From: a virus
Virus record (IMG/VR): IMGVR_UViG_3300045988_061742
Coordinates: 1-18,455 of that record
DNA: 18,455 bases
Direction: 5' to 3' (one strand)
Every line of letters begins with the position of its first letter. The first letter of the stretch is position 1. The notes under the pieces are model-generated. The model made no database searches. It saw nothing but the letters and a program-made list of their open reading frames with translations, and was not told the DNA's origin. Made by a program: the position numbers and the translations under genes. Positions 2,522 through 18,455 of the stretch are shown here, in pieces.

Positions 2522-2547
2522 GAGAGCACCCAGCCTTGGGTGCTCTC
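2522..2547 (+). terminator. Perfect 11-bp stem-loop (GAGAGCACCCA-gcct-TGGGTGCTCTC) with no U-tract; attenuator or 5'-UTR structure
   Basis: Inverted repeat 2522-2532 / 2537-2547 with a 4-nt loop, followed by GCCATCTT rather than a T-run. It lies between the SSB-like gene and the putative TP gene, downstream of the 2491 box. Confidence 0.35.
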
Positions 2548-2569
2548 GCCATCTTAAGGACTGTGCCAT

Positions 2570-3532
2570 ATGTCTCGGAAGCAAAAGCATGTCAAGGCAC
2601 GTCAGGCCGCGCAGGCACGCGCCGCCCGCAACATCAAACAACTAGGCTCTTACTCACACTCGAATCTCGCCAAAACCGCCGACAAACAACTAGTCAACAT
2701 CGCCAAAACCTTAGGCAAAGAGTGGGAGCGTCAGAAGAAACAGGCGGTAGCGGAAGCGAAAGCAACCACCTATCATTCCACCGCCGTGGAGAAACCGACG
2801 AAAAAAGACATCATGTTCGCCCAGCGCACGCCAATCACGGACGCGCAGATCAGCGCGGAACCGGTGGCGAAACGACGTAAACTGCTCAGACAGCAGCAGC
2901 GGAAAATCAATGCGGCACGACGGAAAATCAACGAATGGAACAAATCTCAAGCCATGCCTGCAAAAAGCGTGTACGAGCAACGTGTGGCCGAAATCACCGG
3001 CACCACCGGTGAAGGTTTTGGACGTAACCAGATCATCCCGTCGAAGCTCACCGATTTTCTTCAAATGACGAACGTGCTGTCAGATGAGGCTTTTGTTCGC
3101 TCCCAATTGGAAAGCGGCCACCGTGACGAACTGCTTGAGCAGATGCATGACGCCGCCGAAATACTAGGGTTGCGTACCGAACGGAAAGGCAGACCGTCCA
3201 AAAAGCGGGGAACCGGCAGACAGGCCAAAGACTTGTACGGTGAGCATGAATGGCCGTCATACATGTCACGCGGACGCTACGAAGTGTTCGAGAAGATTCT
3301 GGCAACCACGCTCGGCTCGAAACGGTTGAAACGATTCCGCAGCCTGTCCGCCGCGCAAAAACGCGCGTTCATCGAACAGACCGACGCCCCCCGTATTGTG
3401 TTCGACTGGACGGTATACGACCCGGTTCGGCACGGTTTCACATCGATATTCCGAAACAATGGTGAGGGTTATCAGCGTTCCCGCAAGCAGTTTGACAGGT
3501 GGATGACGGAAGCGGGCGCACTGGAAAAGTAG
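2570..3532 (+). CDS. Putative terminal protein (TP) for protein-primed replication (320 aa, very basic)
   Basis: It sits directly upstream of, and co-oriented with, the protein-primed polymerase, as the TP gene does in phi29-type genomes. It is Lys/Arg-rich (KRRKLLRQQQRKINAARRKINEW). The genome has ITRs, so a TP is required. The assignment is positional; no sequence similarity was recognised by eye. Confidence 0.5.
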   Translation: MSRKQKHVKARQAAQARAARNIKQLGSYSHSNLAKTADKQLVNIAKTLGKEWERQKKQAVAEAKATTYHSTAVEKPTKKDIMFAQRTPITDAQISAEPVAKRRKLLRQQQRKINAARRKINEWNKSQAMPAKSVYEQRVAEITGTTGEGFGRNQIIPSKLTDFLQMTNVLSDEAFVRSQLESGHRDELLEQMHDAAEILGLRTERKGRPSKKRGTGRQAKDLYGEHEWPSYMSRGRYEVFEKILATTLGSKRLKRFRSLSAAQKRAFIEQTDAPRIVFDWTVYDPVRHGFTSIFRNNGEGYQRSRKQFDRWMTEAGALEK

Positions 3533-3560
3533 CGGACGAGCAAGCAAGGGAAGTTATACC

Positions 3561-5015: not shown

Positions 5016-5016
5016 T
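5008..5016 (+). promoter_or_regulatory. Candidate extended -10 promoter TGtTATAAT overlapping the polymerase stop codon
   Basis: Perfect TG-n-TATAAT box. The predicted start is near 5023, and a strong terminator lies ~140 nt downstream with no credible ORF between. Confidence 0.4.
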
Positions 5017-5022
5017 GTCCAT

Positions 5023-5193
5023 GTCTTCTTGAGCATTGATTTTCGACTGGGAATGACATGGGTCGGATCGCCACGGCTGAGAATGCCGCCGGCTATGGAG
5101 TCGCTACTGTGGCGGTAGCGCCCTACGATTTTCGACTTGATGCTCACATAGGACATTTAGACCTCCGCGTGATTGCGGAGGTCATTTTATTTT
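5023..5193 (+). ncRNA. Candidate ~170-nt structured small RNA (possible pRNA-like packaging RNA); alternatively just the 3' UTR of the early operon
   Basis: A non-coding stretch in an otherwise compact genome, with its own promoter-like box and a terminator. Hand folding gives a 5'/3' closing helix (5021-5039 with 5137-5156), two internal hairpins and a 6-nt loop-bulge complementarity (CGCCAC 5069-5074 / GTGGCG 5109-5114). Details are in the findings. Confidence 0.35.
5160..5193 (+). terminator. Rho-independent terminator ending the early/replication module
   Basis: GACCTCCGC (5160-5168), loop GTGATT, GCGGAGGTC (5175-5183), then ATTTTATTTT. Confidence 0.85.
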
Positions 5194-5202
5194 CCCGTCG
5201 CA

Positions 5203-5211
5203 TGATATAAT
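5203..5211 (+). promoter_or_regulatory. Candidate late promoter, extended -10 TGaTATAAT
   Basis: Perfect TG-n-TATAAT box 10 nt after the terminator T-run and ~39 nt before the first late gene (SD TAAGGAG, ATG 5250). Confidence 0.5.
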
Positions 5212-5249
5212 TTTGAAGGAAAGATTCTACCAACGTAAGGAGAATTTGC

Positions 5250-5537
5250 ATGGCAGACCCAGACAATGACGGAGAGGAGACCACTACTCCGCCGCCGACC
5301 GAAGAGGAACGGCAGACGGAAACCGTGGATGATGAAGTCAGGCCGAAAGAACCGGAACCGGAACCGGAGCCGTCCGAACCGGACATAAGCGCGCGACTTG
5401 ACGGTATCGAAAAGGAATTGGCCGCACTCAAGGCCATGATGGACACGCTCGGTTACAACGACCTCGCACCGTCTGATAACGACAATGACGGCGACGGCGA
5501 TAATGATGGCGAGTCGATCGAAGATCTGTTTGACTAA
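5250..5537 (+). CDS. Putative scaffolding protein (95 aa, extremely acidic)
   Basis: It lies immediately upstream of the major capsid gene, and its size and position match phi29 gp7. It has a predicted helical core (ISARLDGIEKELAALKAMMDTL) flanked by D/E/P-rich tails, and its C-terminal ..SIEDLFD recalls the phi29 gp7 C-terminus ..IEDL... Confidence 0.55.
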   Translation: MADPDNDGEETTTPPPTEEERQTETVDDEVRPKEPEPEPEPSEPDISARLDGIEKELAALKAMMDTLGYNDLAPSDNDNDGDGDNDGESIEDLFD

Positions 5538-5553
5538 AAGAAAGGTATAGACA

Positions 5554-7269
5554 ATGTCCAATGTTCGACCACTTGCAGGTAAAGGTGACGTTGAGATCTT
5601 CAACGCCGTGCGTTCCGCCACCTCACCGCAGTTCCAAGTGCGCATCCCGTCAGCGACTCAAGGCAATATCCGCAACGCGGTGGACACCATGCGCAACTTC
5701 CCATACTTGCGCGACGAGTTCACGGGGGTACTTATCCAGCGTCTTATCGGTCTTTACATCCAACATGCGGACTGGGACGATCCGTTGAAGCTGATTGGCT
5801 CGCCGCGCACTCTCAAGCGCTACGGGTCGACTTACGAACAGGCCGCAGTTGGCCTCGTCAAGGCCCGCACCCGCAATTTCAACAAAGAGTATCTTGGCGA
5901 CGACGTGTATGGCCGCTACTCGCTGCCGACCGCTTCGGCGTTCCATCCCCTTACTTTCGACCATTATTACCCCGTCACTATCCCCGAAGACGCCTTGCTT
6001 ACCGCGTTCGACGGCGAAAGTGGCATGTCGGATTATATCAGCGAGATCATGAACGCACCTATCCTCTCGGATAGGAACGATATGTATTTGATGAAGACGC
6101 AGACTTTTGCGGAGTACGCGCGTAAGGGTGGCTTCTATCGCGTGCATACCCCCGATGTCGGTGCCGCGAACTCAACCGAGGCGGACGCCAAGGGGCTATT
6201 GCGCCTTATTCAGCAGGTGGCGAACGAACTCAAAGCGTCGCCAATGAGCGCCATGCCACGATATAATGCCATGAGTTGGGTGACTCCGTGGCGCGATTCC
6301 GAAGCCATCCTCTTCGCCACACCGCAGGTAATCGCCGCGCTCAACGTTGAAGCCCTCGCCGCCGCATTCAACATTGACAAGGTGAACGTGCCGTATCGTA
6401 TCATTCCGATTCCGGAAGACATGTTTGGCATCGGTGGTGCGGCTGGTAAGGTGCAGGCGGTTCTGACCACGGAAGACTTTTTCTTCTGCTGGGACGAAAT
6501 GCTGGAAACCACGACCAGCCCCGTTAACCCGATCGACGGAACCCGAAACATTTTCTACAAGCACCGCGGCTCCATCACTCCCAATCCATTTGCGAACGCC
6601 GTGCTGTTCTGGACAGGCGAAGGCTCCAACGAGTCCGTGACTCTGCCGGACACGCTCGCCACCTCGAAGCCGGAGTTCACCCTGCGCGTGCGCAAGTATG
6701 GACAGTCCGCCATCACCCCCGAAAATATTTCGCGTGGCGACTTGGTGCAGGTTGAGTCCGTCATTTCGAGCGAGAACAAGGCTGAGGCGTCGTTCCAGCC
6801 GGTTGGCATCGAATACAAGGTCGAGGGCGCCACATCGCAGTTCACGACCATCGATAACGGCGGTGTCCTTCGGTGTGGTTTGGATGAAACCGCCGAAGTG
6901 CTCAAGGTCACGGCTCAGGCAACCTACGTCGACCCAGCCCATCCCGAGATTGACCAGACGGTTTCCGCCGCACTGTCCGTGCCGGTGGTCGGCACTTGGC
7001 TCGGTGGCTGGAAGGTCGGCGCCATCGAGTCCATCGAGATTCGGGGCGAGAAAACCGTTAGTAAAGGCAGTCATATCGCACTTAAGGCGATTGCCACCAA
7101 GACGGACGGCAACACCGCAGACGTGACCAACCTCGCCATGTGGACTGTGGCCGCCAACGCAACCATCACTCCCGACGGCGTACTAACCGGAACCATAGTG
7201 GGCACCGCCAACGTTTCCGCGAAGTTCGCGGGAGCTGCTGGAACGGCAAGAGTCACCGTCATCGCCTGA
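5554..7269 (+). CDS. Major capsid protein, phi29 gp8-like, with C-terminal Ig-like (Big_2-type) domain(s)
   Basis: Several blocks align by eye with phi29 gp8: N-terminal FNAVRS...VRIPSAT; DALLTAFDGESGMSDYISEIMNAPILSDRNDMYLMK against ..LKTAF..[25 protein letters not shown]; and NP..G..N..YKH...I..NPFANAVLF against NPRGLYWNYYYH...SVSRFANAVAF. The last 84 aa (7015-7266: IEIRGEKTVSKGSHIALKAIATKTDGNTADVTNLAMWTV...VLTGT..GTANVSAKFAG..GTARVTV) form a typical Big_2 Ig-like domain. A second beta-rich segment precedes it. Confidence 0.9.
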   Translation: MSNVRPLAGKGDVEIFNAVRSATSPQFQVRIPSATQGNIRNAVDTMRNFPYLRDEFTGVLIQRLIGLYIQHADWDDPLKLIGSPRTLKRYGSTYEQAAVGLVKARTRNFNKEYLGDDVYGRYSLPTASAFHPLTFDHYYPVTIPEDALLTAFDGESGMSDYISEIMNAPILSDRNDMYLMKTQTFAEYARKGGFYRVHTPDVGAANSTEADAKGLLRLIQQVANELKASPMSAMPRYNAMSWVTPWRDSEAILFATPQVIAALNVEALAAAFNIDKVNVPYRIIPIPEDMFGIGGAAGKVQAVLTTEDFFFCWDEMLETTTSPVNPIDGTRNIFYKHRGSITPNPFANAVLFWTGEGSNESVTLPDTLATSKPEFTLRVRKYGQSAITPENISRGDLVQVESVISSENKAEASFQPVGIEYKVEGATSQFTTIDNGGVLRCGLDETAEVLKVTAQATYVDPAHPEIDQTVSAALSVPVVGTWLGGWKVGAIESIEIRGEKTVSKGSHIALKAIATKTDGNTADVTNLAMWTVAANATITPDGVLTGTIVGTANVSAKFAGAAGTARVTVIA

Positions 7270-7289
7270 CAATAGACGCCGGCTAGTAA

Positions 7290-7329
7290 AATAGGTGCGA
7301 GAAGACAATTCTCGCACCTATTGTTTTTT
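7290..7329 (+). terminator. Rho-independent terminator / attenuator directly after the capsid gene
   Basis: AATAGGTGCGAGAA (7290-7303), loop GACAA, TTCTCGCACCTATT (7309-7322), then GTTTTTT. The next gene's SD (AGGAGG) and ATG 7341 follow immediately, so some read-through is required. Confidence 0.8.
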
Positions 7330-7340
7330 AGGAGGACTTT

Positions 7341-9569
7341 ATGAGCGCAAACGATTTGCCAATCAATTTCAGTTACGCGAAATGGACACCAAACACACGG
7401 TTCAAGTTGTGTAACGTGCCTTGGGATATGGGTTACAGGGATATTGTCAAGTGGGACGAGATTGCTCAGAAAGAGTATTTCGAGCGTCTGGACGGTATCG
7501 AATTCTCCAATTGCACCATGGCGAAATACGGCCTTCCGGTACGACTGCCGGTGCCGTTCGCGCAAGCATGTCGGTATAATTATCTGATTGCGACGAACGA
7601 CTACGACTTCGACACCCCCCGTAGTTGGTATTATTTTATCCAGACGTGCGATTATATCAACGCCAACACCACACAGCTCAATATCCAGCTTGACGTGTGG
7701 CAGAGCTTCCAGCACGATATCCAATTGGACAACGCCTATGTGGAAAGGGGTCATGTCGGGATTGCGAACGAAAACGCTTGGAAAGACTGGGGCCGCACCT
7801 ATCTCGACCTACCGGAAGGCCTGGACACCGGCAAGGCAATGGTGGTCACCGGACAGCAGTATAAGACTTTGATCAGCGAAACGAACGGCTACACCACCTT
7901 CGGCGTGATCGTAGTATCCACCACAAAATTGGACACCAACCCCGGCACGGCAGACGCACCGAAAATCACGTGCGCGGACGGCAGCGCTTTCGAAAACCAT
8001 GCGAACGGCACCGCATTATACTATTTTTCGGACGCTCTGGATTTTCTCGCAGTGATGGGGGCGGGCGCGGAATACCCGTGGGTGACACAGGGTATTTGCG
8101 GCATCTACGCCATCCCCCAACTTCCGGAAGCCCTTTTAGAAAAGCAGCAGAAGCCGGGCGTGTTCTTCAATCATATGATTGACTGGCGTGGCGACTGCTA
8201 CCGCCTGAAGGTACGCCATAATGATGCTAAAAGCCGCTACGCCGACATCATCCATATCAAGGACTTCCGCGACAATTTCAAACTCCCCGAACGCTACAAG
8301 TATCTCAAAAAATTCCGCACCGCGCCATACGCCATATTGGAATGCTCGTGCCTCAACGGTACCGTGATCACTTACAATCCCGAGCAGATTCCAAGCGCTG
8401 ACCTGACTATCCGCGAGTCATGGGACTACGCGCCACCGTCTCCGCGACTCAACTTTTATCCGCTCGGATATAACGCCGGAGATGTCAGCGAACAATCCCC
8501 GTTGCCGAACGATTCCGGTTTGCCGATTGATTCCGGTGAAATGCTTGACGCCAGTTTCGGCATCACCGATTTCCCAACCTTCATGACGGTCAACAACGGC
8601 AGCGCCCTCGCCCTCGCCAATTCCGCGTACACGCGCCAATACGCGCAGCAGAGCGCGGATTGGAGTTTTCAGAAAACCCAAATGGGCATCAACAACGCCT
8701 ACTCTCAGGCACAATTAGGCGCGCAGTACGCGAGTGCCCAGAATCGACTTGGCACGTCCAACCGTAATGCCATGAACGCCATCAGCAATCAAAGCGCTCA
8801 GATGGGCGCCGATCTGACGTTGAAAAACCTCGGTTTCAATAACCAAATGTCACAGCTGAACACGATTGGCAGCGGTATGGCGAACGCGGTTGGCTCCGCC
8901 GTAACGGGTAATGTCGGCGGTGTGGCCGGTGCCATCGCAGGCACGGCCATCGGCGCATGGACCAATCAAATGACCTACGATAATAATGTGAGCACGGCTA
9001 ATCAGCAGCTTGCGAACACGCAGACGACCAACAACGCGTCGACTTCACAGGCCAACGCCTACAGCCTTGCGCAAACCAACTTGTCCAACCAACAGACAAT
9101 GCAACTCGCGGATATGAACAGGCAACTTGCACAAGCCACGGCCCAAGGGGACTACGAGAACACCATTGCGGGCATCAACGCGCAGGTGCAACAGACTCAA
9201 ACGATACCCCCTACAACGTCCGGCGCGTTGGGCGGTGACGCGTTCAATCTTGCCAACGGGCTAATTGGCGTGATGGTGCGCTTCCGGCAGATACCACCAG
9301 CCGCCATGCGCTCCATTGGCGAAGTATGGCTAAGATACGGCTATTACGTGCAACGGTTCATGAAGCTGCCGGAAGATCTCATGGCAATGTCCAATTTCAC
9401 GTACTGGAAAGTGCATGAGCTGTACGTGCGTTCGAGCACGTGCCCGGAAGAGTATCGATTGACTGTGAAAGGCATTTTCGAGAGTGGCGTAACCGTCTGG
9501 ACCGACCCCAACAAAATCGGCGTCACGGATTATGCGGACAATACGCCACTATCAGGTATCGCATACTAG
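7341..9569 (+). CDS. Tail knob protein, phi29 gp9-like (742 aa)
   Basis: The N-terminal domain aligns by eye with phi29 gp9: NVPWDMGYRDIVKW / DVPFSNDYKNTRWF; YNYLIATN......RSWYYFIQTCDYINANTTQLNIQLDVWQSF / [45 protein letters not shown]. Its position between the capsid and portal genes matches phi29 synteny. Confidence 0.85.
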   Translation: MSANDLPINFSYAKWTPNTRFKLCNVPWDMGYRDIVKWDEIAQKEYFERLDGIEFSNCTMAKYGLPVRLPVPFAQACRYNYLIATNDYDFDTPRSWYYFIQTCDYINANTTQLNIQLDVWQSFQHDIQLDNAYVERGHVGIANENAWKDWGRTYLDLPEGLDTGKAMVVTGQQYKTLISETNGYTTFGVIVVSTTKLDTNPGTADAPKITCADGSAFENHANGTALYYFSDALDFLAVMGAGAEYPWVTQGICGIYAIPQLPEALLEKQQKPGVFFNHMIDWRGDCYRLKVRHNDAKSRYADIIHIKDFRDNFKLPERYKYLKKFRTAPYAILECSCLNGTVITYNPEQIPSADLTIRESWDYAPPSPRLNFYPLGYNAGDVSEQSPLPNDSGLPIDSGEMLDASFGITDFPTFMTVNNGSALALANSAYTRQYAQQSADWSFQKTQMGINNAYSQAQLGAQYASAQNRLGTSNRNAMNAISNQSAQMGADLTLKNLGFNNQMSQLNTIGSGMANAVGSAVTGNVGGVAGAIAGTAIGAWTNQMTYDNNVSTANQQLANTQTTNNASTSQANAYSLAQTNLSNQQTMQLADMNRQLAQATAQGDYENTIAGINAQVQQTQTIPPTTSGALGGDAFNLANGLIGVMVRFRQIPPAAMRSIGEVWLRYGYYVQRFMKLPEDLMAMSNFTYWKVHELYVRSSTCPEEYRLTVKGIFESGVTVWTDPNKIGVTDYADNTPLSGIAY

Positions 9570-9574
9570 ATATA

Positions 9575-9603
9575 ATGGAGAGAGCGTAATAAACTCTCTC
9601 CAT
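9575..9603 (+). terminator. 10-bp stem-loop after the tail-knob gene (ATGGAGAGAG / CTCTCTCCAT); weak terminator or RNA-stability element
   Basis: Perfect inverted repeat 9575-9584 / 9594-9603 with a 9-nt loop, followed by CATTTGTAT (poor U-tract). A TATAAT without the TG extension lies at 9571-9576. Confidence 0.4.
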
Positions 9604-9626
9604 CATTTGTATCAAGGACGGTGACA

Positions 9627-10565
9627 ATGGGTAAACGCAATAACGCGAAAAAGGCCGCGCACTGGGATAATCAGAGCGTTTTAGGCTCGATGTGGGGCAA
9701 TCTTAACCTACCTGAAATGCGGCAGTCATTACGAATCAACCAATACATGAAGCTGATTGAAATGTTGGCGGTGAGCCGGTTCAAGTGGATAAATTTGCCC
9801 CCGTACATTGACGAGCGCTATTTGGAACTGACGCTATTCGAGAATGGTTTGGCGCTCTTTTTCCCCGATAAACGCAAGGGCGTCCATCGTTTTATGGTCA
9901 CGTCGGGTAATATCGGCGGTGTCAACAACTATAATAATCCGACATCATTCCAGCCGGTTGCCGCGAATTACTCACACCCGCAAATCGGAAGCAAGGAGTG
10001 CGTGCCGATTTGGGACAACCAACTGCGTTGCACCATGATTGATGTCATGTGGAATTATGCCACGCGGCTCGCCATCGCCGACCGCGCACTGGATGTCAAC
10101 CTCGACAATATCAGCGTGCCGCTGATCATCGCCACGTCTGAAACCAACAAACTCACCGCCGAAAACCTCATGAAGGCACGCGAGGACGGAGACCCATATA
10201 TCTACATGTATGACACCGCGGATATCACGGGCATGTTCCAAACCTTCCCCAACATGACGCCGTTTTTGGCGGATAAGATCATCACCACCAAAACTCAGGT
10301 GTGGAACGAACTCGTCAACTACCTCGGCATCGACAACAGCACGACGGAAAAGAAGGAACGACTACTCGAATCGGAAGTGACGGCGGGAAACAGTCGTACG
10401 AACGTGTTCCGCCTGAGCTACCTGAAAGCACGTCAACAGGCTTGCGACACGATTAACCGGTTGTGGCCGCAAATGGCCGACTCGGGGCATCCTGTCGGCA
10501 TCGAATGGAACGACACCACCAGCGGCGGCCTGCTGGACGTCGACGGAAACAAGGAGGAAGAATAA
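9627..10565 (+). CDS. Portal / upper collar (connector) protein, phi29 gp10-like
   Basis: Clear by-eye similarity to phi29 gp10: FKWINLPPYIDERYLELTLFENG against [23 protein letters not shown], and QVWNELVNYLGIDNSTTEKKERLLESEV against [28 protein letters not shown]. ATG 9627 lies 8 nt after AAGGA. The ORF track starts at GTG 9621, which is an alternative. Confidence 0.92.
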   Translation: MGKRNNAKKAAHWDNQSVLGSMWGNLNLPEMRQSLRINQYMKLIEMLAVSRFKWINLPPYIDERYLELTLFENGLALFFPDKRKGVHRFMVTSGNIGGVNNYNNPTSFQPVAANYSHPQIGSKECVPIWDNQLRCTMIDVMWNYATRLAIADRALDVNLDNISVPLIIATSETNKLTAENLMKAREDGDPYIYMYDTADITGMFQTFPNMTPFLADKIITTKTQVWNELVNYLGIDNSTTEKKERLLESEVTAGNSRTNVFRLSYLKARQQACDTINRLWPQMADSGHPVGIEWNDTTSGGLLDVDGNKEEE

Positions 10566-10567
10566 AT

Positions 10568-11380
10568 ATGGTGCAGGACTTGAGCATGTATGCGGTCAAG
10601 GATGGTATGGCCGACTACACCTTGACTCTTGGCAATCTGATCGCACGCGGTTTCGACACGGACGAAAAACTCCATTTAAGCTCGCAATATTATCCGATTT
10701 TCGACGAAAAATACAGGGCGAAACTTAACGAGAAAATCGTAGCACACTACGCGTTGCGTGAGATTGGTTCGGAAACGCCGCAAATGTTCGTTTTCTATCT
10801 CGGGCGTACCATGCGCGAACAAATGGACTATTTCAACCAACTCTATTTATCCGCGCAACATAAGTTCGACCCGTTCATCACTTCCGATATTCGGCAGGAA
10901 ATGGACTCGACCAGCACGAACGAGTCCAGTGGCAAGTCTTCCGGCACGCAATCGAACGAGTCCACGGCGAATAGCACGTCCGACACCACCGCCGACAATT
11001 CCAGCATGACTTTTAACAGCGAGTTCCCGCAAACACGTATCGATGACTTCCGAAAGTACGCCACCACCGCGTCACAGACGGACTCGACCGGCAACACGCA
11101 CACGAGCACACAGCAGGACAGCACCGCCACCGCGTCCAGTACCAGCAACACCGATTTTTCGCACTCGTCCGATAAGGGAAACAGCGTGTCGCATACGCTC
11201 GGCACCAGCGGTTCACAATCACAGCTCTTGCAGGATTGGCGTAACACCATGCTCAATATTGACATGATGGTCGTCAACTCGCTTGAAAACCTCTTTTTAG
11301 GCATGTGGGGCAGTGGCGACAATATGACCAACGTGCCGCAATTGCATTCCACGTCACTCGCCTACAACCTCGGCCACTAG
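10568..11380 (+). CDS. Lower collar protein, phi29 gp11-like (270 aa)
   Basis: ATG 10568 lies 7 nt after AAGGAGGAAG and 2 nt after the portal stop; the track ORF start at 10463 is only an upstream in-frame extension overlapping the portal gene. The N-terminus (YYPIFDEKYRAKLNEKIVAHYALREIGSETPQMFVFYLGRTMREQMDYFNQLY) is typical of picovirus lower-collar proteins. The long S/T-rich central region fits the tube-forming loops. The position matches phi29 synteny. Confidence 0.8.
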   Translation: MVQDLSMYAVKDGMADYTLTLGNLIARGFDTDEKLHLSSQYYPIFDEKYRAKLNEKIVAHYALREIGSETPQMFVFYLGRTMREQMDYFNQLYLSAQHKFDPFITSDIRQEMDSTSTNESSGKSSGTQSNESTANSTSDTTADNSSMTFNSEFPQTRIDDFRKYATTASQTDSTGNTHTSTQQDSTATASSTSNTDFSHSSDKGNSVSHTLGTSGSQSQLLQDWRNTMLNIDMMVVNSLENLFLGMWGSGDNMTNVPQLHSTSLAYNLGH

Positions 11381-11411
11381 AGTATACTTGACATTGACAG
11401 ATTGGAGGATT

Positions 11412-12011
11412 ATGGACGGACTCGACATGTGCGCCGCGCCGTTGGCCATTGACTCACGGCAGCGGTATTTCACGACGGTTCAGCCGTTCTCGTACCGCGA
11501 CACGTTAACCGTGCTCGGATACGTGCAGGAGGTGGCCGAACATGTGGACGAATTGCGCGAACAGCTCGACAATCTCGCCGAAGACGAGAACGCGGACATC
11601 GAAGCCATCAAACAGCTGGTGGCCGGTTTTGACGAGCAGTTCGAGCGCATCAACAAAACCTTGGATGATTTGGAGAAACAAGTCGGACAGTACGAAGACT
11701 CCGACCTTACCTATAACCCGACACGCGGCAAGTATGAGGACTCCAAAAACACGAATCGCGATATGTACCGTGAGCTTGCGGTGTTCGGCGCACGCGTCAA
11801 CCAAATGGCCCAGCTATCCGTGCCAATGGCCGCCGCGCACACGTGCCTTGAGTTCGCCGTGCTCGGCAACAAAACCATTTTCCATAATGACGAGCCACGT
11901 ATCACGCCACGTGACGTACACGTGGATGACGGCGAATCCGTCAATCCGCTGTCGGTGGAGAATCTCGCCAATGGCGTCGTGGTCAACAATTTCATGAAAA
12001 CAGCTCAGTAA
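11412..12011 (+). CDS. Structural protein with central coiled coil, function unknown (199 aa; start uncertain, the track gives TTG 11388)
   Basis: It lies in the tail gene block. It has a heptad-like acidic helical segment (VQEVAEHVDELREQLDNLAEDENADIEAIKQLVAGFDEQFERINKTLDDLEKQV). GGAGG (11404-11408) is only 3 nt before ATG 11412. Confidence 0.6.
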   Translation: MDGLDMCAAPLAIDSRQRYFTTVQPFSYRDTLTVLGYVQEVAEHVDELREQLDNLAEDENADIEAIKQLVAGFDEQFERINKTLDDLEKQVGQYEDSDLTYNPTRGKYEDSKNTNRDMYRELAVFGARVNQMAQLSVPMAAAHTCLEFAVLGNKTIFHNDEPRITPRDVHVDDGESVNPLSVENLANGVVVNNFMKTAQ

Positions 12012-12026
12012 TATAAGGAGAGACAA

Positions 12027-12380
12027 ATGGTACAGAAGACACCGAACTACAATCTTGAAAAATACAGCTCAACCGACGCGCCGAATCTCGAAGGCTCGTA
12101 CAACCGTTCGATGGATATTCTCGACACGACGTTAAAAACGCAGTCGGATAGGATTGACGCAATCCCGACACCAGAAAGCCTTCCCGAGGGTTTGACGGCG
12201 TTCGCCACCGCTCTCGGACTGGGCAACTCCAACGCCAACGCGCTCGGCACCGCGCTTAACCATCTCCTCAACCGTGTTCCAGCAACAGGCGGCGGCCAGT
12301 ATACCGTCAAAAACCTCAACGACACCAAAGTCACCGCCGAAGGGCTTCCGTTCGTTTCCACCACCGCTTCGGGAGATTGA
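12027..12380 (+). CDS. Short tail-fibre-like protein carrying the shared N-terminal module (117 aa)
   Basis: AAGGAG SD upstream. Its N-terminus (TPNYNLEKYSSTDAPNLEGSYNRSMDILDTTL) is paralogous to the N-termini of the next two genes. Confidence 0.7.
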   Translation: MVQKTPNYNLEKYSSTDAPNLEGSYNRSMDILDTTLKTQSDRIDAIPTPESLPEGLTAFATALGLGNSNANALGTALNHLLNRVPATGGGQYTVKNLNDTKVTAEGLPFVSTTASGD

Positions 12381-12571
12381 TGGTTATGACAGACAGTCAG
12401 CAGCAGACCACGCCCGTGGACTCCGCCGCATACGATGTGACGCGACATTATGGACTGCCGCTTTACAGTGACGCGGCACCAATGGACATGCGCGACGGAT
12501 ACAATCGCGCCATGCGCATGATCGACCAGATTCTGAATCAACTGCAAACCCAGGTTCGAGAGAAGGACTAA
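12380..12571 (+). CDS. Mini-protein consisting almost only of the shared N-terminal fibre module (63 aa; alternative starts at 12377 and 12386)
   Basis: ATG 12380 overlaps the previous stop (TGATG), with GGGAG upstream. The sequence HYGLPLYSDAAPMDMRDGYNRAMRMIDQIL aligns with the fibre N-terminus NYGLNLYGDNDPADLRDGYNGSMRAIDTTL. Confidence 0.6.
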   Translation: MVMTDSQQQTTPVDSAAYDVTRHYGLPLYSDAAPMDMRDGYNRAMRMIDQILNQLQTQVREKD

Positions 12572-12577
12572 ACACAA

Positions 12578-14533
12578 ATGGCTACCGTATACACAAAGAC
12601 GGATAATTACGGATTGAACCTTTACGGCGACAACGACCCTGCCGACTTGCGCGACGGCTACAACGGCAGCATGCGCGCCATCGACACCACGCTTGAAAAG
12701 CATCTCAACCGCATCGAAGCCGTGGAGTCGCGTGAAACGCATGATGAAGAAGTGGTCAAAGCGCTGATTGGTGATAACACGGTTGACAGCGCCACCGCAT
12801 CGAAGACCAAGTGGGATAAATCGATCACAGACGCCGCCGCCGCAACCGCCGCGGCCACAGCCGCAACCGCCGCGGCCACGGCCGCAGCAGGTAAAGCGGA
12901 CAACAACACGGCGATCCTCGCCGCGTTGGGATCCGACACTACGGCAAACGCCACCGCCAATAAAACCAAATGGGATAAAGCGGGAGCGGACGCAGCGACA
13001 GCCATAGGCAAGGCCGACAACAATAAAACAATTCTCACCGCACTTGGAGCAGGCTCAATCGTTGACGCCACGGCGCAAAAAACCAAACTGGACAACACCG
13101 CCGCCAAGGTGGACGAGTTTGCGAACACACGTGTCGACAGCAAGCTTGACTCACACCTCATCATTCACGCGCACCGTGGTTCCTACCGTTTCCCCGAAAA
13201 CACGATGGAAGGCATCATGTGGGCGGTACGTCACGGATACGTGCCCGAAATCGACGTGCAACTCACGTCGGACGGTGTTCCCGTGATCCTGCACGACACC
13301 TCAACCGCGCGAACCATGACAGGCACTGCGGCAAACGTGTCTTCCATCACCTACAGTGATTTTATGAGTCGCGAAGTCAAGGCGAAAGTACATGGCGGAA
13401 ACACCGGCAAGCCGGTAAGCATGGAGCAGGTGCTCCAAGCGGTGGGCGATAGTCCGGTTGACTTTGAAATCAAGTCGCTGAACAACGCCACCACCGACGC
13501 CATGCTGGAATTACTGCGCAAGTATGGCGCAACCTCAATCCACGAATTGACGTCGTTCAGCTGGGAACAGTGCGTCCGTGCCGTGCGGGGCGGCGCGAAA
13601 TACGTGTCGTACACGTGGGATGTGGACACCATGCCGCACTCTTGGACCGACATGAAAAATGCGGGCATTTTCTGCGGCAATCCGCGTGAAGACAAATTGA
13701 CGTCGACAATGGTCAGCGCCGCGCATACGGCGGGGGTCAAGATCAACCCGTGGCTGATTAACGACCCAGTAGCCTACGAGCGTGTCACCAAGCTCGGAGT
13801 GGATGGCATCACGTCCAATTGGCCGGATTATGCGACAAAACAGATGTGCCGCAACTTCACGCCATTCAGCACCGGCGAAAACACTTTTATCCGTCCAACG
13901 CGGTTCCAGGTATACGGCCAGCAAGGGTATGTCGACGTCTCGGAAGCCGACAGAGCCAAGAGCACGTATCTCGCGCCGGACGGGCTGTTCCAGCTTGGTG
14001 ACGCCGATGGGCAGATGGCTGTTGAACTTGTTGAAGTCGGACAGGTGACTTTACCGACGTCAATCGACCTCGAAGGCTTCATGTCCAGAGTACAGACCGG
14101 TGCGGCCGGGGAAACGCGCAATATCGCAGTCGTGGCCGTCAAGGAAAGCACGGATATAGAGCCGTGGGAGGATAACAAGAAGGCTGGACAGGTTGGAATT
14201 ATCGCAGGTGTGCGCCGTAATGGCGCCACCTTCGGCGGATTCTATCAAAACAATAAAGACACTGTGCCTTTTGACTCGACCGATACCAAGACGCCCGTTG
14301 TCGGCAATGACGATAGTGTCGCAGTGCATGCGTCATTTGTCCTTGACAGAGACCATGCACGCATCATTTGGGCTTACAGCAATGGGCAGAATGGCGACGT
14401 AATCACCGGAAACAATAAAAGCGTCATACTGCCGGACGAAAAGTACCGGCTCTACCTGCGTGTCAACCGCAATTTCAAGAGCGCATGGAAAATAAGGGTA
14501 CGTCCCACTGACGGTTATCTCTACGAGAGCTGA
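12578..14533 (+). CDS. Tail appendage / receptor-binding protein with a glycerophosphodiester phosphodiesterase (GDPD) domain (651 aa)
   Basis: aa 1-50: shared anchor module. aa ~66-178: Ala/Thr-rich repeats (..TKWDK....GKADNN.AIL.ALG.. repeated). aa ~193-417 (13154-13828): canonical GDPD motifs HAHRG..FPENT......G...EIDVQLTSDGVPVILHD ... FEIK ... INPWLIND ... GVDGITSNWPD. aa 420-651: beta-rich C-terminal domain of unknown fold. Confidence 0.88.
   Translation: MATVYTKTDNYGLNLYGDNDPADLRDGYNGSMRAIDTTLEKHLNRIEAVESRETHDEEVVKALIGDNTVDSATASKTKWDKSITDAAAATAAATAATAAATAAAGKADNNTAILAALGSDTTANATANKTKWDKAGADAATAIGKADNNKTILTALGAGSIVDATAQKTKLDNTAAKVDEFANTRVDSKLDSHLIIHAHRGSYRFPENTMEGIMWAVRHGYVPEIDVQLTSDGVPVILHDTSTARTMTGTAANVSSITYSDFMSREVKAKVHGGNTGKPVSMEQVLQAVGDSPVDFEIKSLNNATTDAMLELLRKYGATSIHELTSFSWEQCVRAVRGGAKYVSYTWDVDTMPHSWTDMKNAGIFCGNPREDKLTSTMVSAAHTAGVKINPWLINDPVAYERVTKLGVDGITSNWPDYATKQMCRNFTPFSTGENTFIRPTRFQVYGQQGYVDVSEADRAKSTYLAPDGLFQLGDADGQMAVELVEVGQVTLPTSIDLEGFMSRVQTGAAGETRNIAVVAVKESTDIEPWEDNKKAGQVGIIAGVRRNGATFGGFYQNNKDTVPFDSTDTKTPVVGNDDSVAVHASFVLDRDHARIIWAYSNGQNGDVITGNNKSVILPDEKYRLYLRVNRNFKSAWKIRVRPTDGYLYES
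12839..12886 (+). repeat. In-frame 21-nt tandem repeat (GCCGCAACCGCCGCGGCCAC[A/G], ~2.3 copies) encoding (AATAAAT)n in the fibre stalk
   Basis: Unit 1 is 12839-12859 and unit 2 is 12860-12880, differing at one wobble base. A partial third copy covers 12881-12886. Confidence 0.85.
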
Positions 14534-14551
14534 CAGACCATCCTAAGTCCA

Positions 14552-14593
14552 AGTAATAGCCATATCCTCTATAATAAGGATATGGCTATTACT
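14552..14593 (+). promoter_or_regulatory. Perfect 16-bp hairpin that sequesters the SD and start codon of the tail-lysin gene, with TATAAT in the loop
   Basis: AGTAATAGCCATATCC (14552-14567) is the exact reverse complement of GGATATGGCTATTACT (14578-14593). The right arm contains GGA of the SD, ATG 14582 and codons 2-4. The 10-nt loop TCTATAATAA contains TATAAT (14570-14575), 7 nt upstream of the A of the ATG. Confidence 0.6.
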
Positions 14594-15805
14594 TTTGACG
14601 AGTGGATAAAACAAACACAGGGCCGCTACTGGGATATGGACGGGGCGTATGGTGCTCAATGTTGGGATTTGTGGGCCAAATATTGCATGGACCTATACGG
14701 TGCGTCAGTGAGCGACTGCATCACGCCAACCGGCTATGCGGAAGGCAACTACACTCGGTTCCCAACCAATTCAAAAATGGCTGCGGTTTTCGAGAAGAAG
14801 CCCGCTGACTATTCTCCCGTCAAAGGTGACGTGGCGTTTTGGAATTTCTCAAGCCAACACACCGGATCCCACGTGAGCATTGTCATGGAGGACGGCGTAC
14901 ATAACGGACGCATCACCGTCCTATCGCAAAACCCTAATCCCGCGCAGCGCATGAGTTTCGACTTGACGGCGTTTCTGGGGTATCTGCACCCGAAAGCACT
15001 AGGCGAAGGAGGTGGCACGACTTCGACGGAAAAGAATCCGACAGGAGACAATAGTCACGGTTCCGCCGACTCCGCACGTGGTGGCGCGTGGATACATTGG
15101 CAAGGCGGCAACCTCTACTTACATGAAAGCGACAACGCCGGAACACGAACTCGCATATTCTATAAGACAACCGCCAACAATTTTTCCGAAAAGGCGTCAC
15201 AATCCCAACCGTCCAGCGATAACGGACAAGCGCATCCCTCCACCTCGATATCGCCGGAAAACTCTTACGCCCTATATGTGGTGGGCACGGTTGAGGCCGG
15301 TCTACGCTGGGATGCGGTAGAAGCAGCCAATTTGCAGGGCATTGGCATCGCGCAATGGAGTTTCGAGCGCCGACTCCAAGTGCTCAACGCCATGAAGGCC
15401 GCCGACCCAGCCGGATACACGACATTCAAAGCGTCCGCGCCTGAAATCGCGTCTCTTATGGAGTCGGGCGGCACGTTCAAACGTTCGCTCACTTCGGCGG
15501 AAGCGGCCGCGTTCCGCACATGGGCGGGGCGGAGTGAGTCGCGTGACGGCCAACGTAAACAGTTTGCGGAGGATTATGCAGGCTATCCGAAGCAGTACGA
15601 TGATGTAAAAATGCAGATTCTTTGGATAACGGCGTATCACCAATCGCCCGCCAACGCGCTCAAAGTGCCGAAAGCATCGAACCTCGCACAGCTTAAAAAC
15701 AATATTCTGTCAACGTTTCCATTCGGGCCGTACACGACGCGATACAACCAAGCGTATTCTTTGCTTTCGGTGTGGGATGGCAAGTCTAATCCACCCGCAT
15801 TCTAA
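14582..15805 (+). CDS. Virion-associated peptidoglycan hydrolase (phi29 gp13 analogue): N-terminal CHAP peptidase plus C-terminal lysozyme-like domain (407 aa)
   Basis: CHAP motifs: GAQCWDLW (Cys27) and GSHVSIV (His97). A Gly/Ser/Thr linker spans aa 140-165. The C-terminal part (aa ~228-400), GTVEAGLRWDAVEAANLQGIGIAQWSFERRLQVL, resembles the phage tail lysozyme type (E...G.GI.QW..R...L). It sits after the fibre gene, as gp13 does in phi29. Confidence 0.75.
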   Translation: MAITFDEWIKQTQGRYWDMDGAYGAQCWDLWAKYCMDLYGASVSDCITPTGYAEGNYTRFPTNSKMAAVFEKKPADYSPVKGDVAFWNFSSQHTGSHVSIVMEDGVHNGRITVLSQNPNPAQRMSFDLTAFLGYLHPKALGEGGGTTSTEKNPTGDNSHGSADSARGGAWIHWQGGNLYLHESDNAGTRTRIFYKTTANNFSEKASQSQPSSDNGQAHPSTSISPENSYALYVVGTVEAGLRWDAVEAANLQGIGIAQWSFERRLQVLNAMKAADPAGYTTFKASAPEIASLMESGGTFKRSLTSAEAAAFRTWAGRSESRDGQRKQFAEDYAGYPKQYDDVKMQILWITAYHQSPANALKVPKASNLAQLKNNILSTFPFGPYTTRYNQAYSLLSVWDGKSNPPAF

Positions 15806-15810
15806 AAGTG

Positions 15811-15819
15811 TGGTATACT
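15811..15819 (+). promoter_or_regulatory. Candidate extended -10 promoter TGgTATACT
   Basis: A TG-n-TATACT box lies 6 nt after the tail-lysin stop codon. The predicted start is near 15826, upstream of terminator 15880-15924. Confidence 0.35.
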
Positions 15820-15879
15820 TAATAGTGGCAGTGGTTGTATGATGACCTTTCCCCCTTGAACGGCTGCCATATGATAGGT

Positions 15880-15924
15880 TAGTGGAGGGCGTGCGAGTCA
15901 TGGCGCACGCCCTCCACTAGTTTT
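15880..15924 (+). terminator. Rho-independent terminator (16-bp stem) between the tail lysin and the packaging ATPase
   Basis: TAGTGGAGGGCGTGCG (15880-15895), loop AGTCATGG, CGCACGCCCTCCACTA (15904-15919), then G+TTTT (15920-15924). The ATPase SD (AGGAGG) follows directly. Confidence 0.8.
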
Positions 15925-15939
15925 AGGAGGGTTGCAAAC

Positions 15940-17007
15940 ATGACATTGCAAACGCTTGACGAGGGCGATTATTACAATTTGCACAATCTGTTGACGCGAA
16001 ACGCCCCGTGGAATTTTGTAATAGGCGCGCGTGGCCTAGGTAAGACGTTCGCCGCGAAACGATACGGCATCAAAGAGTACATCAAGCACGACCGCGAGTT
16101 CATTTATTTGCGCCGTACGGACGTGGAACAGCACAGGAAAGAGACGTTTTTCAAGGATATTCAGGAATTTTTCCCGTCCTACGAATTTCGTGTCAACGGT
16201 GAAAAGGGGCAGATTCATAAGACTTCCTGGGATGAGAAGGATTGGCGGACATGCTGCTATTTTGTGGCCCTCTCTCAGGCTGGCGGACTCAAGTCAGTCG
16301 CCTACCCGAAAGTGCATTTGATTATTTTCGACGAGATTTTCCCCGATAACCTGCGTTTTTTAAGTAATGAGGTAAACTCGTTTTCCGAATTTTACAATAC
16401 GGTGGACAGGTGGCAGGATAGAACAAAAGTTCTATTCCTATCGAACGCCGTTCAAAAGGCCAATCCATATTTCGCCAAATACCGGTTGGACATTGGCGCA
16501 CAGCAAGCCAACCAACAACAATACAAACTCTATTGCGGCGGGTTTATCTGTCTCGAACTAGCAGACTATGGTGGTTTCTCGGCAAAAGTCGCCAAATCAA
16601 GGTTCGGCAAATTCTTGGAGCAATACGATGGCGATTATGCCGACTATGCGATACGTAACAAGTTCCGTGACGAGTCGGACACATTACTGGCGCCTATACC
16701 GTCAAACGGCGAGCTGTCTTACATTTTGGACACTACGGATTACGCGCGGTTTGGGGTGTGGGTTTCCGTGTCCGAACGCGATGGACGTGTTTCACAATAT
16801 GTTTCACGGCGTATTCCAAAAGACAACAATCGCCCCGTCTATACGCTTGACCCGAACCATGTTGACGAAAGAACGTGGTATGTCAAAAAGTCGGATGATG
16901 TTATACGACGGCTCACCACCGGCTACAGACTTGGTAAAATACGATTCGATGATTCCCAAGTCAAAGCGGATTTCGGTCTGATTATCGGAGAACTGCTAGG
17001 CAAATAG
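15940..17007 (+). CDS. DNA encapsidation (packaging) ATPase, phi29 gp16-like
   Basis: WNFVIGARGLGKTFAAKRY aligns with phi29 gp16 LNFVIGARGIGKSYAMKVY (Walker A, aa 29-36). Walker B is HLIIFDE (aa 125-132). LSNAVQKANPYF aligns with LSNAVSVVNPYF, and the C-terminal G.IRFD matches GYLRFD. Confidence 0.95.
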   Translation: MTLQTLDEGDYYNLHNLLTRNAPWNFVIGARGLGKTFAAKRYGIKEYIKHDREFIYLRRTDVEQHRKETFFKDIQEFFPSYEFRVNGEKGQIHKTSWDEKDWRTCCYFVALSQAGGLKSVAYPKVHLIIFDEIFPDNLRFLSNEVNSFSEFYNTVDRWQDRTKVLFLSNAVQKANPYFAKYRLDIGAQQANQQQYKLYCGGFICLELADYGGFSAKVAKSRFGKFLEQYDGDYADYAIRNKFRDESDTLLAPIPSNGELSYILDTTDYARFGVWVSVSERDGRVSQYVSRRIPKDNNRPVYTLDPNHVDERTWYVKKSDDVIRRLTTGYRLGKIRFDDSQVKADFGLIIGELLGK

Positions 17008-17022
17008 AAAGGAACAATAACA

Positions 17023-17385
17023 ATGACAACAGCGGACGTATGGTGTGCCATCGCAGTAACGTTCTTCATCACCACCGATTACGTCACAGGCGTGGCGAAA
17101 GCCATCATGCAGGATAATCTAAGTTCCAAAAAAATGCGTGAGGGACTAGGCCACAAGTTCGCCTACGTCATCCTCACGTTAACGGCATGGTTCATCGACG
17201 AAGTCAACCTACACATTGACTTGGGACTGCCGGTGTCCGTATTCGTTTGTACGGTCAGCGGAATCTGCCTAATCGAACTTACATCGATTCTGGAAAACGT
17301 CACAGCGATCAATCCGGAATTAGCGAACGCACCATTCATGTCGATATTTTCCCAAAACACGCCTAACGCGAAGCACGGCAAATGA
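17023..17385 (+). CDS. Holin (phage_holin_4 / TcdE-like family, 120 aa)
   Basis: Three hydrophobic segments plus family-typical motifs: DYVTGVAKAI....LSSKKMREGLGHKFAYVIL ... ELTSILENV. It lies directly upstream of the endolysin. Confidence 0.85.
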   Translation: MTTADVWCAIAVTFFITTDYVTGVAKAIMQDNLSSKKMREGLGHKFAYVILTLTAWFIDEVNLHIDLGLPVSVFVCTVSGICLIELTSILENVTAINPELANAPFMSIFSQNTPNAKHGK

Positions 17386-17558
17386 ACCCTATCATCTCAT
17401 ATTGGATATTGAGCGGGCTTACGGCGATTGGAATTGCGATGTGGTTCGCATCCTTCGCCGTCCAATATCCACAGTTCCACCGTGCCGCATTCATCTTCAT
17501 GCTTATCACGACAACGCCGTGGGTGACGGCAACATTATATCTGACACAAACAATGTAA
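17382..17558 (+). CDS. Untracked 58-aa two-TM membrane protein in the lysis cassette (MNPIISYWILSGLTAIGIAMWFASFAVQYPQFHRAAFIFMLITTTPWVTATLYLTQTM)
   Basis: Found by manual translation. Its ATG overlaps the holin stop (ATGA at 17382-17385), it ends 10 nt before the endolysin ATG, and it has two clear hydrophobic helices. It fills an otherwise unexplained 183-nt gap. Confidence 0.6.
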   Translation: MNPIISYWILSGLTAIGIAMWFASFAVQYPQFHRAAFIFMLITTTPWVTATLYLTQTM

Positions 17559-17568
17559 GGAGCGAAAA

Positions 17569-18234
17569 ATGAATATCCAAGAGTGGATTAACTCAGTCAA
17601 CGGCAAAACCATCGACATGGACGGAGCCTACGGCGGACAATGCTGGGACTTGTGGAGCAGCTACGCGCACAACGTATACGGCATTCCAGCCGCCGACACC
17701 AACACCGTAGACGGATATGCCGCAAGCGTGTACACCGCACGTTACGGACGTTCCAGCGCGTTGCAAAAGGCTTTCACCAAAGAGTCAGCCAGCTACACGC
17801 CAACCTACGGAGACGTGGCATTCTGGAAACGCAAGGGCATGAACCACGTCGCCATCGTGATCAAAGACAACGGCAACGGCACACTCACAACCATGTCACA
17901 AAACCCCAACAAAGCCGGATACCTTAATATCAGCAAAAACGGCATCATAGGCTACTTCCACCCTCGAAACAACAACAGTGGCAACGGTAACGCCAATGCC
18001 GTCGCAATCATCGCGCGCACCTATCGCGTCAACGTGCCAGTGCTCAACGTGCGCTCAGCACCAAGCACTAACAGCTGTATTGTGGCGCAATACCATAAAG
18101 GACAGACAGTCAACCTCATGAGCGGCACCACCGTCGCAGACGGGTACATTTGGGCACACTACGTAGGCGGGTCAGGCAAGACACGATACGTCGCGCTAAA
18201 AGCCGTAGAAGGTACGACACAATACCTCGTATGA
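17569..18234 (+). CDS. Endolysin: N-terminal CHAP peptidase plus C-terminal SH3b cell-wall-binding domain (221 aa)
   Basis: CHAP motifs are GGQCWDLW (Cys25) and NHVAIV (His). An Asn/Gly linker (NNNSGNGNANA) follows. The SH3b-like C-terminus reads YRVNVPVLNVRSAPSTNSCIVAQYHKGQTVNL....DGYIWAHY..GSGKTRYVA. AAGGAG SD upstream; the gene follows the holin. Confidence 0.9.
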   Translation: MNIQEWINSVNGKTIDMDGAYGGQCWDLWSSYAHNVYGIPAADTNTVDGYAASVYTARYGRSSALQKAFTKESASYTPTYGDVAFWKRKGMNHVAIVIKDNGNGTLTTMSQNPNKAGYLNISKNGIIGYFHPRNNNSGNGNANAVAIIARTYRVNVPVLNVRSAPSTNSCIVAQYHKGQTVNLMSGTTVADGYIWAHYVGGSGKTRYVALKAVEGTTQYLV

Positions 18235-18242
18235 CATAAGGG

Positions 18243-18280
18243 AAGCCCCTAGACTGTTGGCCTAGGGGCTTTTACTTTTA
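18243..18280 (+). terminator. Rho-independent terminator at the end of the late operon
   Basis: AAGCCCCTAG (18243-18252), loop ACTGTTGGC, CTAGGGGCTT (18262-18271), then TTACTTTTAT. Confidence 0.85.
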
Positions 18281-18336
18281 TATGTTAGTCGCCATCATCA
18301 TTCTCCCCTCCGATTGTCCTTCTCAAACTCGGTAAC

Positions 18337-18455
18337 ATGTGCGGTAAAGTTAGCATTTTATTTTTCCTTCCCCTTGAATCGGATAACTACAATATAACAC
18401 AAACAAAACGGCGACACGCCCGAAAACAAAACAAAACAAAATACTGAAACACAAC
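18337..18455. repeat. Right inverted terminal repeat (ITR), 119 bp
   Basis: Exact reverse complement of 1-119; begins at ATGTGCGGT (18337) and runs to the last base of the window. Confidence 0.97.

Follow-up and report, generated by a model that had tools for sequence, protein, structure and literature searches.

A shared N-terminal module, most likely a virion anchor, on a tail fibre and two headless paralogues of a phi29-like phage

Background

In the phage genome IMGVR_UViG_3300045988_061742 of IMG/VR (positions 1 to 18,455; this whole stretch of 18,455 nucleotides (nt) is the sequence that we analysed and is called the window), three consecutive genes encode proteins that begin alike: a protein of 117 amino acids (aa), here ORF117 (ORF, open reading frame), a protein of 63 aa, here the stub, and a tail fibre of 651 aa. 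Why does an 18-kb genome carry one N-terminal module three times, when only one of the three proteins bears an enzymatic head? Our analysis indicates that the module, about 50 residues long, most likely fastens the tail appendages to the virion throughout a large group of phi29-like phages, a reading drawn by analogy with structurally characterised phages; the cultured members of this group infect Bifidobacterium. Both short ORFs are real genes under purifying selection. The three genes and the three module copies are listed here, each copy with the methods that detected it (the independent hidden Markov model, HMM, is described below).

12027-12380, + strand: ORF117, 117 aa; module (aa 3-50), two short helices, conserved C-terminal motif
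12033-12176, + strand: module copy 1, ORF117 aa 3-50 (hhalign, BLASTP, independent HMM)
12380-12571, + strand: stub, 63 aa from the ATG at 12380, or 64 aa from the TTG at 12377
12425-12568, + strand: module copy 2, stub aa 17-64 (BLASTP, independent HMM)
12578-14533, + strand: fibre, 651 aa; module, helical stalk, GDPD domain, C-terminal domain
12578-12736, + strand: module copy 3, fibre aa 1-53 (independent HMM, E = 1.7e-28)

Results

The original prediction, made from the sequence alone, held that the three N-termini resemble each other, and formal comparison bears it out: they are homologous well above chance. Pairwise BLASTP gives 20/37 identical residues (54%, E = 1e-11) between stub and fibre, 21/51 (41%, E = 2e-9) between ORF117 and fibre, and 11/32 (E = 6e-5) between ORF117 and stub. 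The z-scores of these pairs are 17.1, 11.8 and 7.2, respectively, and the observed score was equalled in 0 of 1000 shuffles for each pair. An independent HMM, built from BP1 and BD811P2/P3 sequences only (cultured Bifidobacterium phages) with none from the window, was searched against all six reading frames of the window. It matches exactly three ORFs, namely the fibre (1.7e-28), the stub (7.5e-24) and ORF117 (2.6e-9), the next match having an E-value of 1.8. A profile of the ORF117 family also matches the fibre N-termini (hhalign probability 97%, E = 2e-11, residues 3-51 against 6-54), so that shuffles, HMM and profile-profile comparison all find the similarity significant. The invariant core of the module reads T-x4-L-x2-Y-x11-Y-N-x2-M-x3-D. 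At the DNA level the three copies are only ~50-60% identical and exhibit no long repeats, which indicates that they are old paralogues; a recent duplication or gene conversion within the genome is rejected on the same grounds.

What follows the module differs from protein to protein, much as first described. The stub is essentially the module alone, preceded by a variable leader of 16 aa and ending in a short amphipathic helix. ORF117 has a distinct C-terminus of ~65 residues with a motif, (F/Y)TV..L...K.TAEG, that is conserved across lineages. The possibility that this C-terminus corresponds to one repeat of the fibre stalk is unsupported, as the profile-profile match ends at residue 51. The 651-aa protein is the only one with an enzymatic domain, a GDPD domain (PF03009) at aa 199-417 that scores 84.6 bits against a cut-off of 23.6 (E = 1.5e-23) and covers profile positions 1-243 of 244.

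Structure prediction gives the module one shape in both proteins that were modelled. The AlphaFold2 model of ORF117 (38-sequence alignment; mean predicted local distance difference test score, pLDDT, 70.6) begins with a beta-hairpin (residues 3-12), which is followed by a helix (19-45; pLDDT 88-97 for both); its C-terminus, predicted at low confidence, consists of two short helices and a hairpin at 100-110 with pLDDT of ~50-60. The model of fibre residues 1-200 (mean pLDDT 85) has the same hairpin-helix start, with the helix at 21-54, followed by a stalk of three long helices (69-116, 122-155 and 161-199) separated by short turns (pLDDT 96-98). The module is therefore predicted to be a beta-hairpin followed by a helix of 27-34 residues. 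Read from the alignments, the hydrophobic residues of the module helix exhibit a 3-4 heptad pattern that is in register across the three paralogues. Among the predicted viral structures of BFVD, all matches to the ORF117 model are uncharacterised proteins of podoviruses, with stubs of 50-60 aa (root-mean-square deviation 0.8 over 44 columns) and SGNH/hydrolase fibres from the same viruses of metagenome-assembled genomes among them.

Several lines of evidence identify the two short ORFs as genuine genes. ORF117 has a Shine-Dalgarno sequence (AAGGAG) 6 nt upstream of its start, and the start codon of the stub, preceded at 4 nt by GGGAG, overlaps the stop codon of ORF117 (TGATG). Over 45 distinct relatives, at synonymous divergence (dS) of ~0.9-1.7, the ratio of non-synonymous to synonymous substitution rates (dN/dS) is 0.09 for ORF117 overall (module 0.065, C-terminal part 0.11); the stub has a ratio of 0.14 and the fibre module one of 0.06. 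Length is conserved as well: more than 120 clusters of ORF117 homologues were found at 90% identity, and the best 120 of them are all 116-118 aa long, nearly all of them 117 aa. A homologue of 110 aa, alignable over its whole length, occurs in a distant lineage of ~16-kb phages (represented by locus L075). Its family comprises 700 clusters, the best 120 of which are 107-114 aa long. Homologues of ORF117 and the stub carry database names such as 'hypothetical' or 'uncharacterized'. ORF117 has no match in Pfam or PHROGs, where the stub obtains sub-threshold chance matches only and where no family covers the module; ORF117-type proteins were not found among the deposited phage genomes of INPHARED.

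On the opposite strand, an ORF of 231 aa (12047-12742, - strand) covers the three copies of the module. Most likely it merely reflects the codon composition of the genes on the + strand, the dN/dS pattern of which supports coding on that strand.

To see how constant the arrangement is, we compared 73 loci, from 65 IMG/VR relatives together with the cultured phages and a number of metagenomic contigs. Every one of the 73 has the stub (51-65 aa), always directly upstream of the fibre gene and often overlapping it by 4 nt (ATGA). ORF117 is present at 117-119 aa in 46 loci, including those of a deep branch in which the neighbouring coiled-coil protein (encoded directly upstream of the module genes) is only 54-57% identical. 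As to whether relatives keep all three copies, a check proposed with the original prediction, the answer is divided: the stub is a core gene and ORF117 is optional. In loci without ORF117, the coiled-coil gene and the stub have between them either no gene at all or an unrelated one of ~210 aa, often decaying; the position is a variable accessory slot.

The ~210-aa gene, the product of which starts with MMDIKKTISS..., fills this slot in the clade resembling BP1 (L048-L058 and L072, at ~6620-7260 in locus coordinates). In many cases it has a frameshift, is truncated or is joined in frame to the stub, the fusion being seen in L052.

Beyond these relatives, an exhaustive profile search retrieved 646 representative clusters (50% identity) with the module at E<=0.001. 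Nearly all of the 150 listed among these bear the module at the extreme N-terminus (residues ~1-53). The listed carriers comprise proteins of ~250-680 aa, the heads of which are unrelated, small proteins of ~50-60 aa and still shorter fragments; the heads behind the module include GDPD, SGNH esterase, beta-helix and propeller folds. Seven distant members were looked up. Five lie on phi29-like contigs, where the module gene follows genes for a portal, a lower collar and a homologue of the coiled-coil protein; one contig is too short to tell, and one match is a presumed artefact. The last, P0374, was rejected as a relative: it is a eukaryote-like repeat protein of 932 aa in which the match of nine short repeats is taken to reflect chance or low complexity. 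Homologues of the stub are also found in the more distant phi29-like lineages, where the sets of carriers are as follows.

L075: 110-aa protein, 57-aa stub and 429-aa fibre
L077: stub and fibre
L078: ORF117-like protein and fibre, without stub
L076: a single fibre without a stub ahead of it (contig end just past the fibre)
L073 and L079: two full fibres in tandem

The module types of these lineages bear on the origin of ORF117. The L075 fibre scores 44.9 bits with the ORF117-type HMM against 23.9 bits with the fibre-type HMM, and the second fibre of L073/L079 scores 66 against 27 bits. As full-length fibres elsewhere are headed by the ORF117-type module, this type is a genuine fibre anchor. 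From these sequence relations, ORF117 appears to derive from a second fibre, without its head, and to have become a stable gene family.

Among the fibre heads of the relatives 11 clusters can be distinguished. They are shuffled with respect to the phage backbones, and the same head type occurs with and without ORF117. The stub follows the backbone: its identity between phages correlates with that of the backbone (rho 0.57, partial 0.56) and of the fibre module (rho 0.61), and not with that of the head (rho 0.10, partial -0.01). This favours a role on the anchor/collar side and argues against a head-specific chaperone. Traces of the exchange are visible in three loci. L059 (8191-8830) contains a partial stub and a truncated fibre of 180 aa, the remnant of a replaced fibre gene; L061 (6686-7165) has a 159-aa remnant upstream of the new fibre; and L062 (6683-6805) has a 40-aa stub remnant. 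All these remnants begin with the module and adjoin intact fibre genes, indicating that the module region is the recombination boundary for head exchange.

The fibre of the window also matches PHROG tail fibre and phosphodiesterase families, and its GDPD head probably acts on glycerol-phosphate polymers of the cell wall, as judged from the domain assignment. The first stalk helix contains a tandem repeat (12839-12886, fibre aa ~88-103; Tandem Repeats Finder: period 21 nt, 2.3 copies, 96% matches), the unit of which encodes 7 aa and is Ala/Thr-rich. GDPD-type fibres of the relatives are 630, 637, 644 or 651 aa long and differ exactly at this 21-nt repeat site; with steps of 7 aa the heptad register is kept.

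The surroundings of the module genes are those of a phi29-like tail. The ends of the window (1-135 and 18321-18455) are terminal inverted repeats of 135 nt, 95% complementary, from which we conclude that the window (18,455 bp) contains an entire linear genome, of the protein-primed (phi29-like) type. The order on the + strand is tail knob, portal, lower collar, coiled-coil protein, the three module genes, CHAP tail lysin and packaging ATPase. The same order is found in BP1 and in the B. dentium phages BD811P2 and BD811P3, and the portal-collar DNA is ~82% identical to that of Bifidobacterium phage BP1. Given the kinship of this 18.5-kb genome with Bifidobacterium phages BP1 and BD811P1-3, the host is likely to be Bifidobacterium. 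The genes upstream of the modules are:

7341-9569, + strand: phi29-type tail knob (phi29 gp9_C)
9621-10565, + strand: portal / upper collar connector, phi29 gp10 family (Pfam Phage_connector, E = 6e-40)
~10568-11380, + strand: lower collar / adaptor, phi29 gp11 equivalent (PHROG adaptor Ad4, E = 1.9e-28; lower collar, E = 3.2e-19)
11388-12011, + strand: coiled-coil protein, 207 aa as listed, directly upstream of the module genes

The lower collar is the presumed docking partner of the module-bearing proteins. The coiled-coil protein may be a platform or partner for them: its homologues precede the module genes in all relatives (L001-L079), the distant L075-L079 included, and share the motif Y.P..G.Y.DS....RDMYRELAVFGAR. 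It obtains no Pfam match above the cut-off, a single weak PHROG match of unknown function and no solved relative. It was rejected as a fourth copy of the module (hhalign probability 2%).

Discussion

How three proteins with one anchor would be used on one tail can be pictured as follows. The N-terminal hairpin or loop of the module would contact the junction of portal and lower collar, and the helix of 27-34 residues with its coiled-coil heptads would follow. There are three ancient paralogous carriers, the enzymatic fibre, the universal stub of ~60 aa and the 117-aa headless mini-fibre with a small conserved C-terminal domain, which would all be expressed late from tightly coupled genes. The headless proteins would take the positions or strands in the connector ring that the full fibre leaves free; they would thereby complete or stabilise the attachment ring and fix the number of enzymatic heads per tail, and the constant module would permit heads to be swapped by recombination with attachment undisturbed. 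We give somewhat better than even odds (about 0.55) to this reading, in which all three proteins join the portal/collar connector ring through the module and the headless ones complete or stabilise the ring or set the number of heads.

A number of observations weigh against it. No phage protein came up when the PDB was searched with profiles (E<=10 and E<=1), hence no homology to solved connectors (Andhra gp15, P68 gp17, phi29 gp12) or other structures, and Foldseek against the PDB gave no match, so that the link to portal/collar docking is an analogy of position and predicted shape. No virion proteomics for BP1 or BD811 was found in the literature searched; we infer the presence of the short proteins in the virion, as well as their docking and their oligomeric state. 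The module itself needs no headless partners, since L078, L076 and L079 lack the stub. ORF117 is dispensable, being absent from BP1, BD811 and 19 metagenomic relatives; in L004-L007 it is cut to its first 34-41 residues and fused in frame to the stub, and in L041 it is truncated to 65 aa. Finally, P68 and Andhra carry 36 full-size fibre chains, which leaves no obvious steric need for fillers.

Another arrangement would be a hetero-oligomeric anchor in which the stub, with ORF117 where it is present, forms no appendage of its own and supplies helices and hairpins to the coiled coil of the fibre, so that each appendage bears fewer than three heads, possibly one. We regard it as unlikely, with a fair number of facts in its favour. 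The stub is nothing but the module; its helix (~28 residues) and that of ORF117 (19-45) match the fibre helix (21-54) in heptad register; its gene is translationally coupled to or overlaps that of the fibre (ATGA), and its identity tracks that of the fibre module (rho 0.61). The heads are usually monomeric enzyme folds (GDPD, SGNH esterase, propeller). Past residue 69 the fibre is predicted to form three helices with turns of 4-5 residues, compatible, as read from secondary structure and pLDDT, with an intrachain bundle without partners. The three chains of the P68 trimer do take three different connector conformations (PMC6795507), and in a specific version of the same idea, equally doubtful, the stub and ORF117 would pair with a single fibre chain, giving one enzymatic head per appendage, so that the three connector roles of P68 are split among three paralogues. 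Against such partnerships stand phages that have only fibres (L076, L079) or an ORF117-like protein and a fibre (L078), in which the module can assemble without these partners, and the loss of ORF117 elsewhere. The natural fusions P0001-P0003 had been considered as a proxy for modelling the packing of module against module by AlphaFold2; they were dropped, as their first module is degenerating and its packing is not under selection.

Slightly less probable still is that the short proteins are not structural. They would transiently occupy collar sites or cap the fibre helix and be gone from mature particles, a proposal that covers control of timing or stoichiometry and an anchor-mimicking chaperone alike. 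Both are very small and headless and have no structural annotation in Pfam or PHROG; their genes lie just upstream of the fibre gene and are coupled to it, and their homology to the fibre is limited to the anchor, as a competitor or cap would need. Known tail-fibre chaperones (Tfa, gp38, gp57A) have genes that follow the fibre gene; their target is the C-terminal head, and they have no homology to the fibre N-terminus. The short genes of the window are different: they are upstream, they match no chaperone family in Pfam or PHROG, and the stub varies independently of the type of head (partial rho -0.01). Moreover, the C-terminal domain of ORF117 is conserved across deep lineages, which is easier to explain for an exposed virion appendage, and its type of module heads true fibres elsewhere. 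That the short ORFs have no function and are merely what recombination at the module has left of earlier fibre genes is effectively refuted for this genome. Genuine scars of this kind do exist in L059, L061 and L062, and ORF117 remnants fused to the stub have mutations at the otherwise invariant Tyr and Asn positions (P0002, P0003). Against this stand purifying selection over the whole length of both ORFs (dN/dS 0.09-0.14), lengths fixed across hundreds of clusters, ribosome-binding sites on both, and their retention between lineages as divergent as those with a 54-57% identical coiled-coil neighbour and the more distant L075.

These results modify the original prediction. The short proteins are paralogues of the fibre, as proposed, and the term 'truncated' fits them poorly, both being old, length-conserved families under purifying selection and neither recent nor degenerate. 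A virion-attachment function for the module agrees with its N-terminal position, the exchangeable heads, the position of the genes and the predicted shape, but its attribution to many Gram-positive phage fibres was too broad: the five distant proteins with marker neighbours are all phi29-like (5/5), no family of Pfam or PHROGs includes the module, and no homology to solved fibres was detected. Of the roles suggested for the short proteins (competing appendages, capping or stoichiometry control, an anchor-mimicking chaperone) none is singled out, a head-specific chaperone being disfavoured by the failure of the stub to track the head.

The general design has several precedents. P22-like tailspikes and T7 gp17 have a constant N-terminal domain that binds the particle, whereas their receptor-binding or enzymatic heads are exchanged horizontally, and in SP6/K1-5-type phages a short headless protein carries the anchor function. 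The SP6/K1-5 adaptors provide docking sites for other spikes and replace the anchors of these, whereas the fibre described here keeps its own module, which predicts that fibre and headless proteins dock at sites of one kind. All of these systems differ from the present case in their fold, in the group of phages and in the type of host. Adenoviruses with two fibre genes have long and short fibres that share a penton-base-binding N-terminal tail. The likeness is that at least two proteins per virion (here presumably) bear the same short N-terminal attachment motif on differing remainders; the differences are that adenoviruses are eukaryotic viruses with an unrelated fold, and both of their fibres carry knobs, none being headless. 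T4 fibritin (wac), with its N-terminal anchor, coiled coil and small C-terminal foldon, is like ORF117 in overall plan: ORF117 has the putative anchor, a helical segment and a tiny conserved C-terminal element, which is predicted as a hairpin at low confidence (pLDDT ~50-60); there is no homology, and the fibritin anchor is not common to the tail fibres.

The closest structural analogues are the receptor-binding proteins (RBPs) of the Staphylococcus picoviruses Andhra and P68. In the Andhra RBP an N-terminal loop of 36-38 residues binds the portal stem, clip and collar and is followed by a coiled coil of 34-38 residues (PMC9710869). In P68, the connector of gp17 (residues 1-45) makes contact with the portal hook as well as with adjacent fibres, and the three identical chains of each trimer adopt three connector conformations, directed to the portal hook, the neighbouring fibre and the next-but-one fibre (PMC6795507). 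Andhra gp15 and P68 gp17 thus likewise use the extreme N-terminus of a phi29-like appendage protein, formed by a loop or hairpin and then a coiled-coil helix, which here is predicted. What little similarity the two RBPs have is confined to the N-terminus (PMC9710869); as in the present group, the N-terminus is conserved and the heads are unrelated, following the host in Andhra and P68 (PMC9710869, PMC6795507). Unlike these likenesses of design, sequence homology to the module is not detectable. Andhra and P68 also have the connector on the full-length RBP only, module-only or headless paralogues being undescribed there, and Andhra employs an unrelated protein, gp6, as an additional RBP anchor.

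A constant particle-binding N-terminus with exchangeable heads, and multiple fibres with one common anchor, are known already. What is new is a pair of conserved, selected and unannotated headless anchor carriers, one of them universal in this group of phi29-like gut phages; the literature searched yielded no module-only fibre paralogues, and phi29, P68 and Andhra are not known to have headless anchor partners. Lytic phi29-like Bifidobacterium phages are abundant in human gut metagenomes and barely studied. As the module marks every RBP of the group, the RBPs and their exchangeable enzymatic heads become easy to find. If the headless proteins are indeed virion components, the picture of how picovirus-type tails are built and how their head number is set would have to be revised, and these proteins would have to be retained when host range is engineered by head swapping. 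Since BP1 and BD811P1-3 are in culture, the question of headless partners is directly testable.

Other genes of the window

Downstream of the fibre gene, the following genes were recognised.

14582-15805, + strand: CHAP tail-associated lysin, 407 aa, right after the fibre gene
15940-17007, + strand: 355-aa protein, with the position and size of the Podovirus_Gp16 packaging ATPase of relatives
17569-18234, + strand: 221-aa protein at the right end, with a CHAP-like N-terminus resembling that of the 407-aa lysin; taken as the endolysin

The 407-aa lysin also exhibits a sub-threshold match to a phage tail lysozyme family (20.7 against 28.2 bits). Two gene starts upstream of the modules call for adjustment. 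The lower-collar ORF is listed with 305 aa from a GTG at 10463, overlapping the portal gene by ~100 nt; the lower collars of relatives are 270-271 aa long and abut the portal stop codon, which places the true start at the ATG at ~10568. The coiled-coil protein of relatives begins with MDG(I/L)NMC, so that its start in the window is likely near 11412. A probable holin is also encoded on the + strand.

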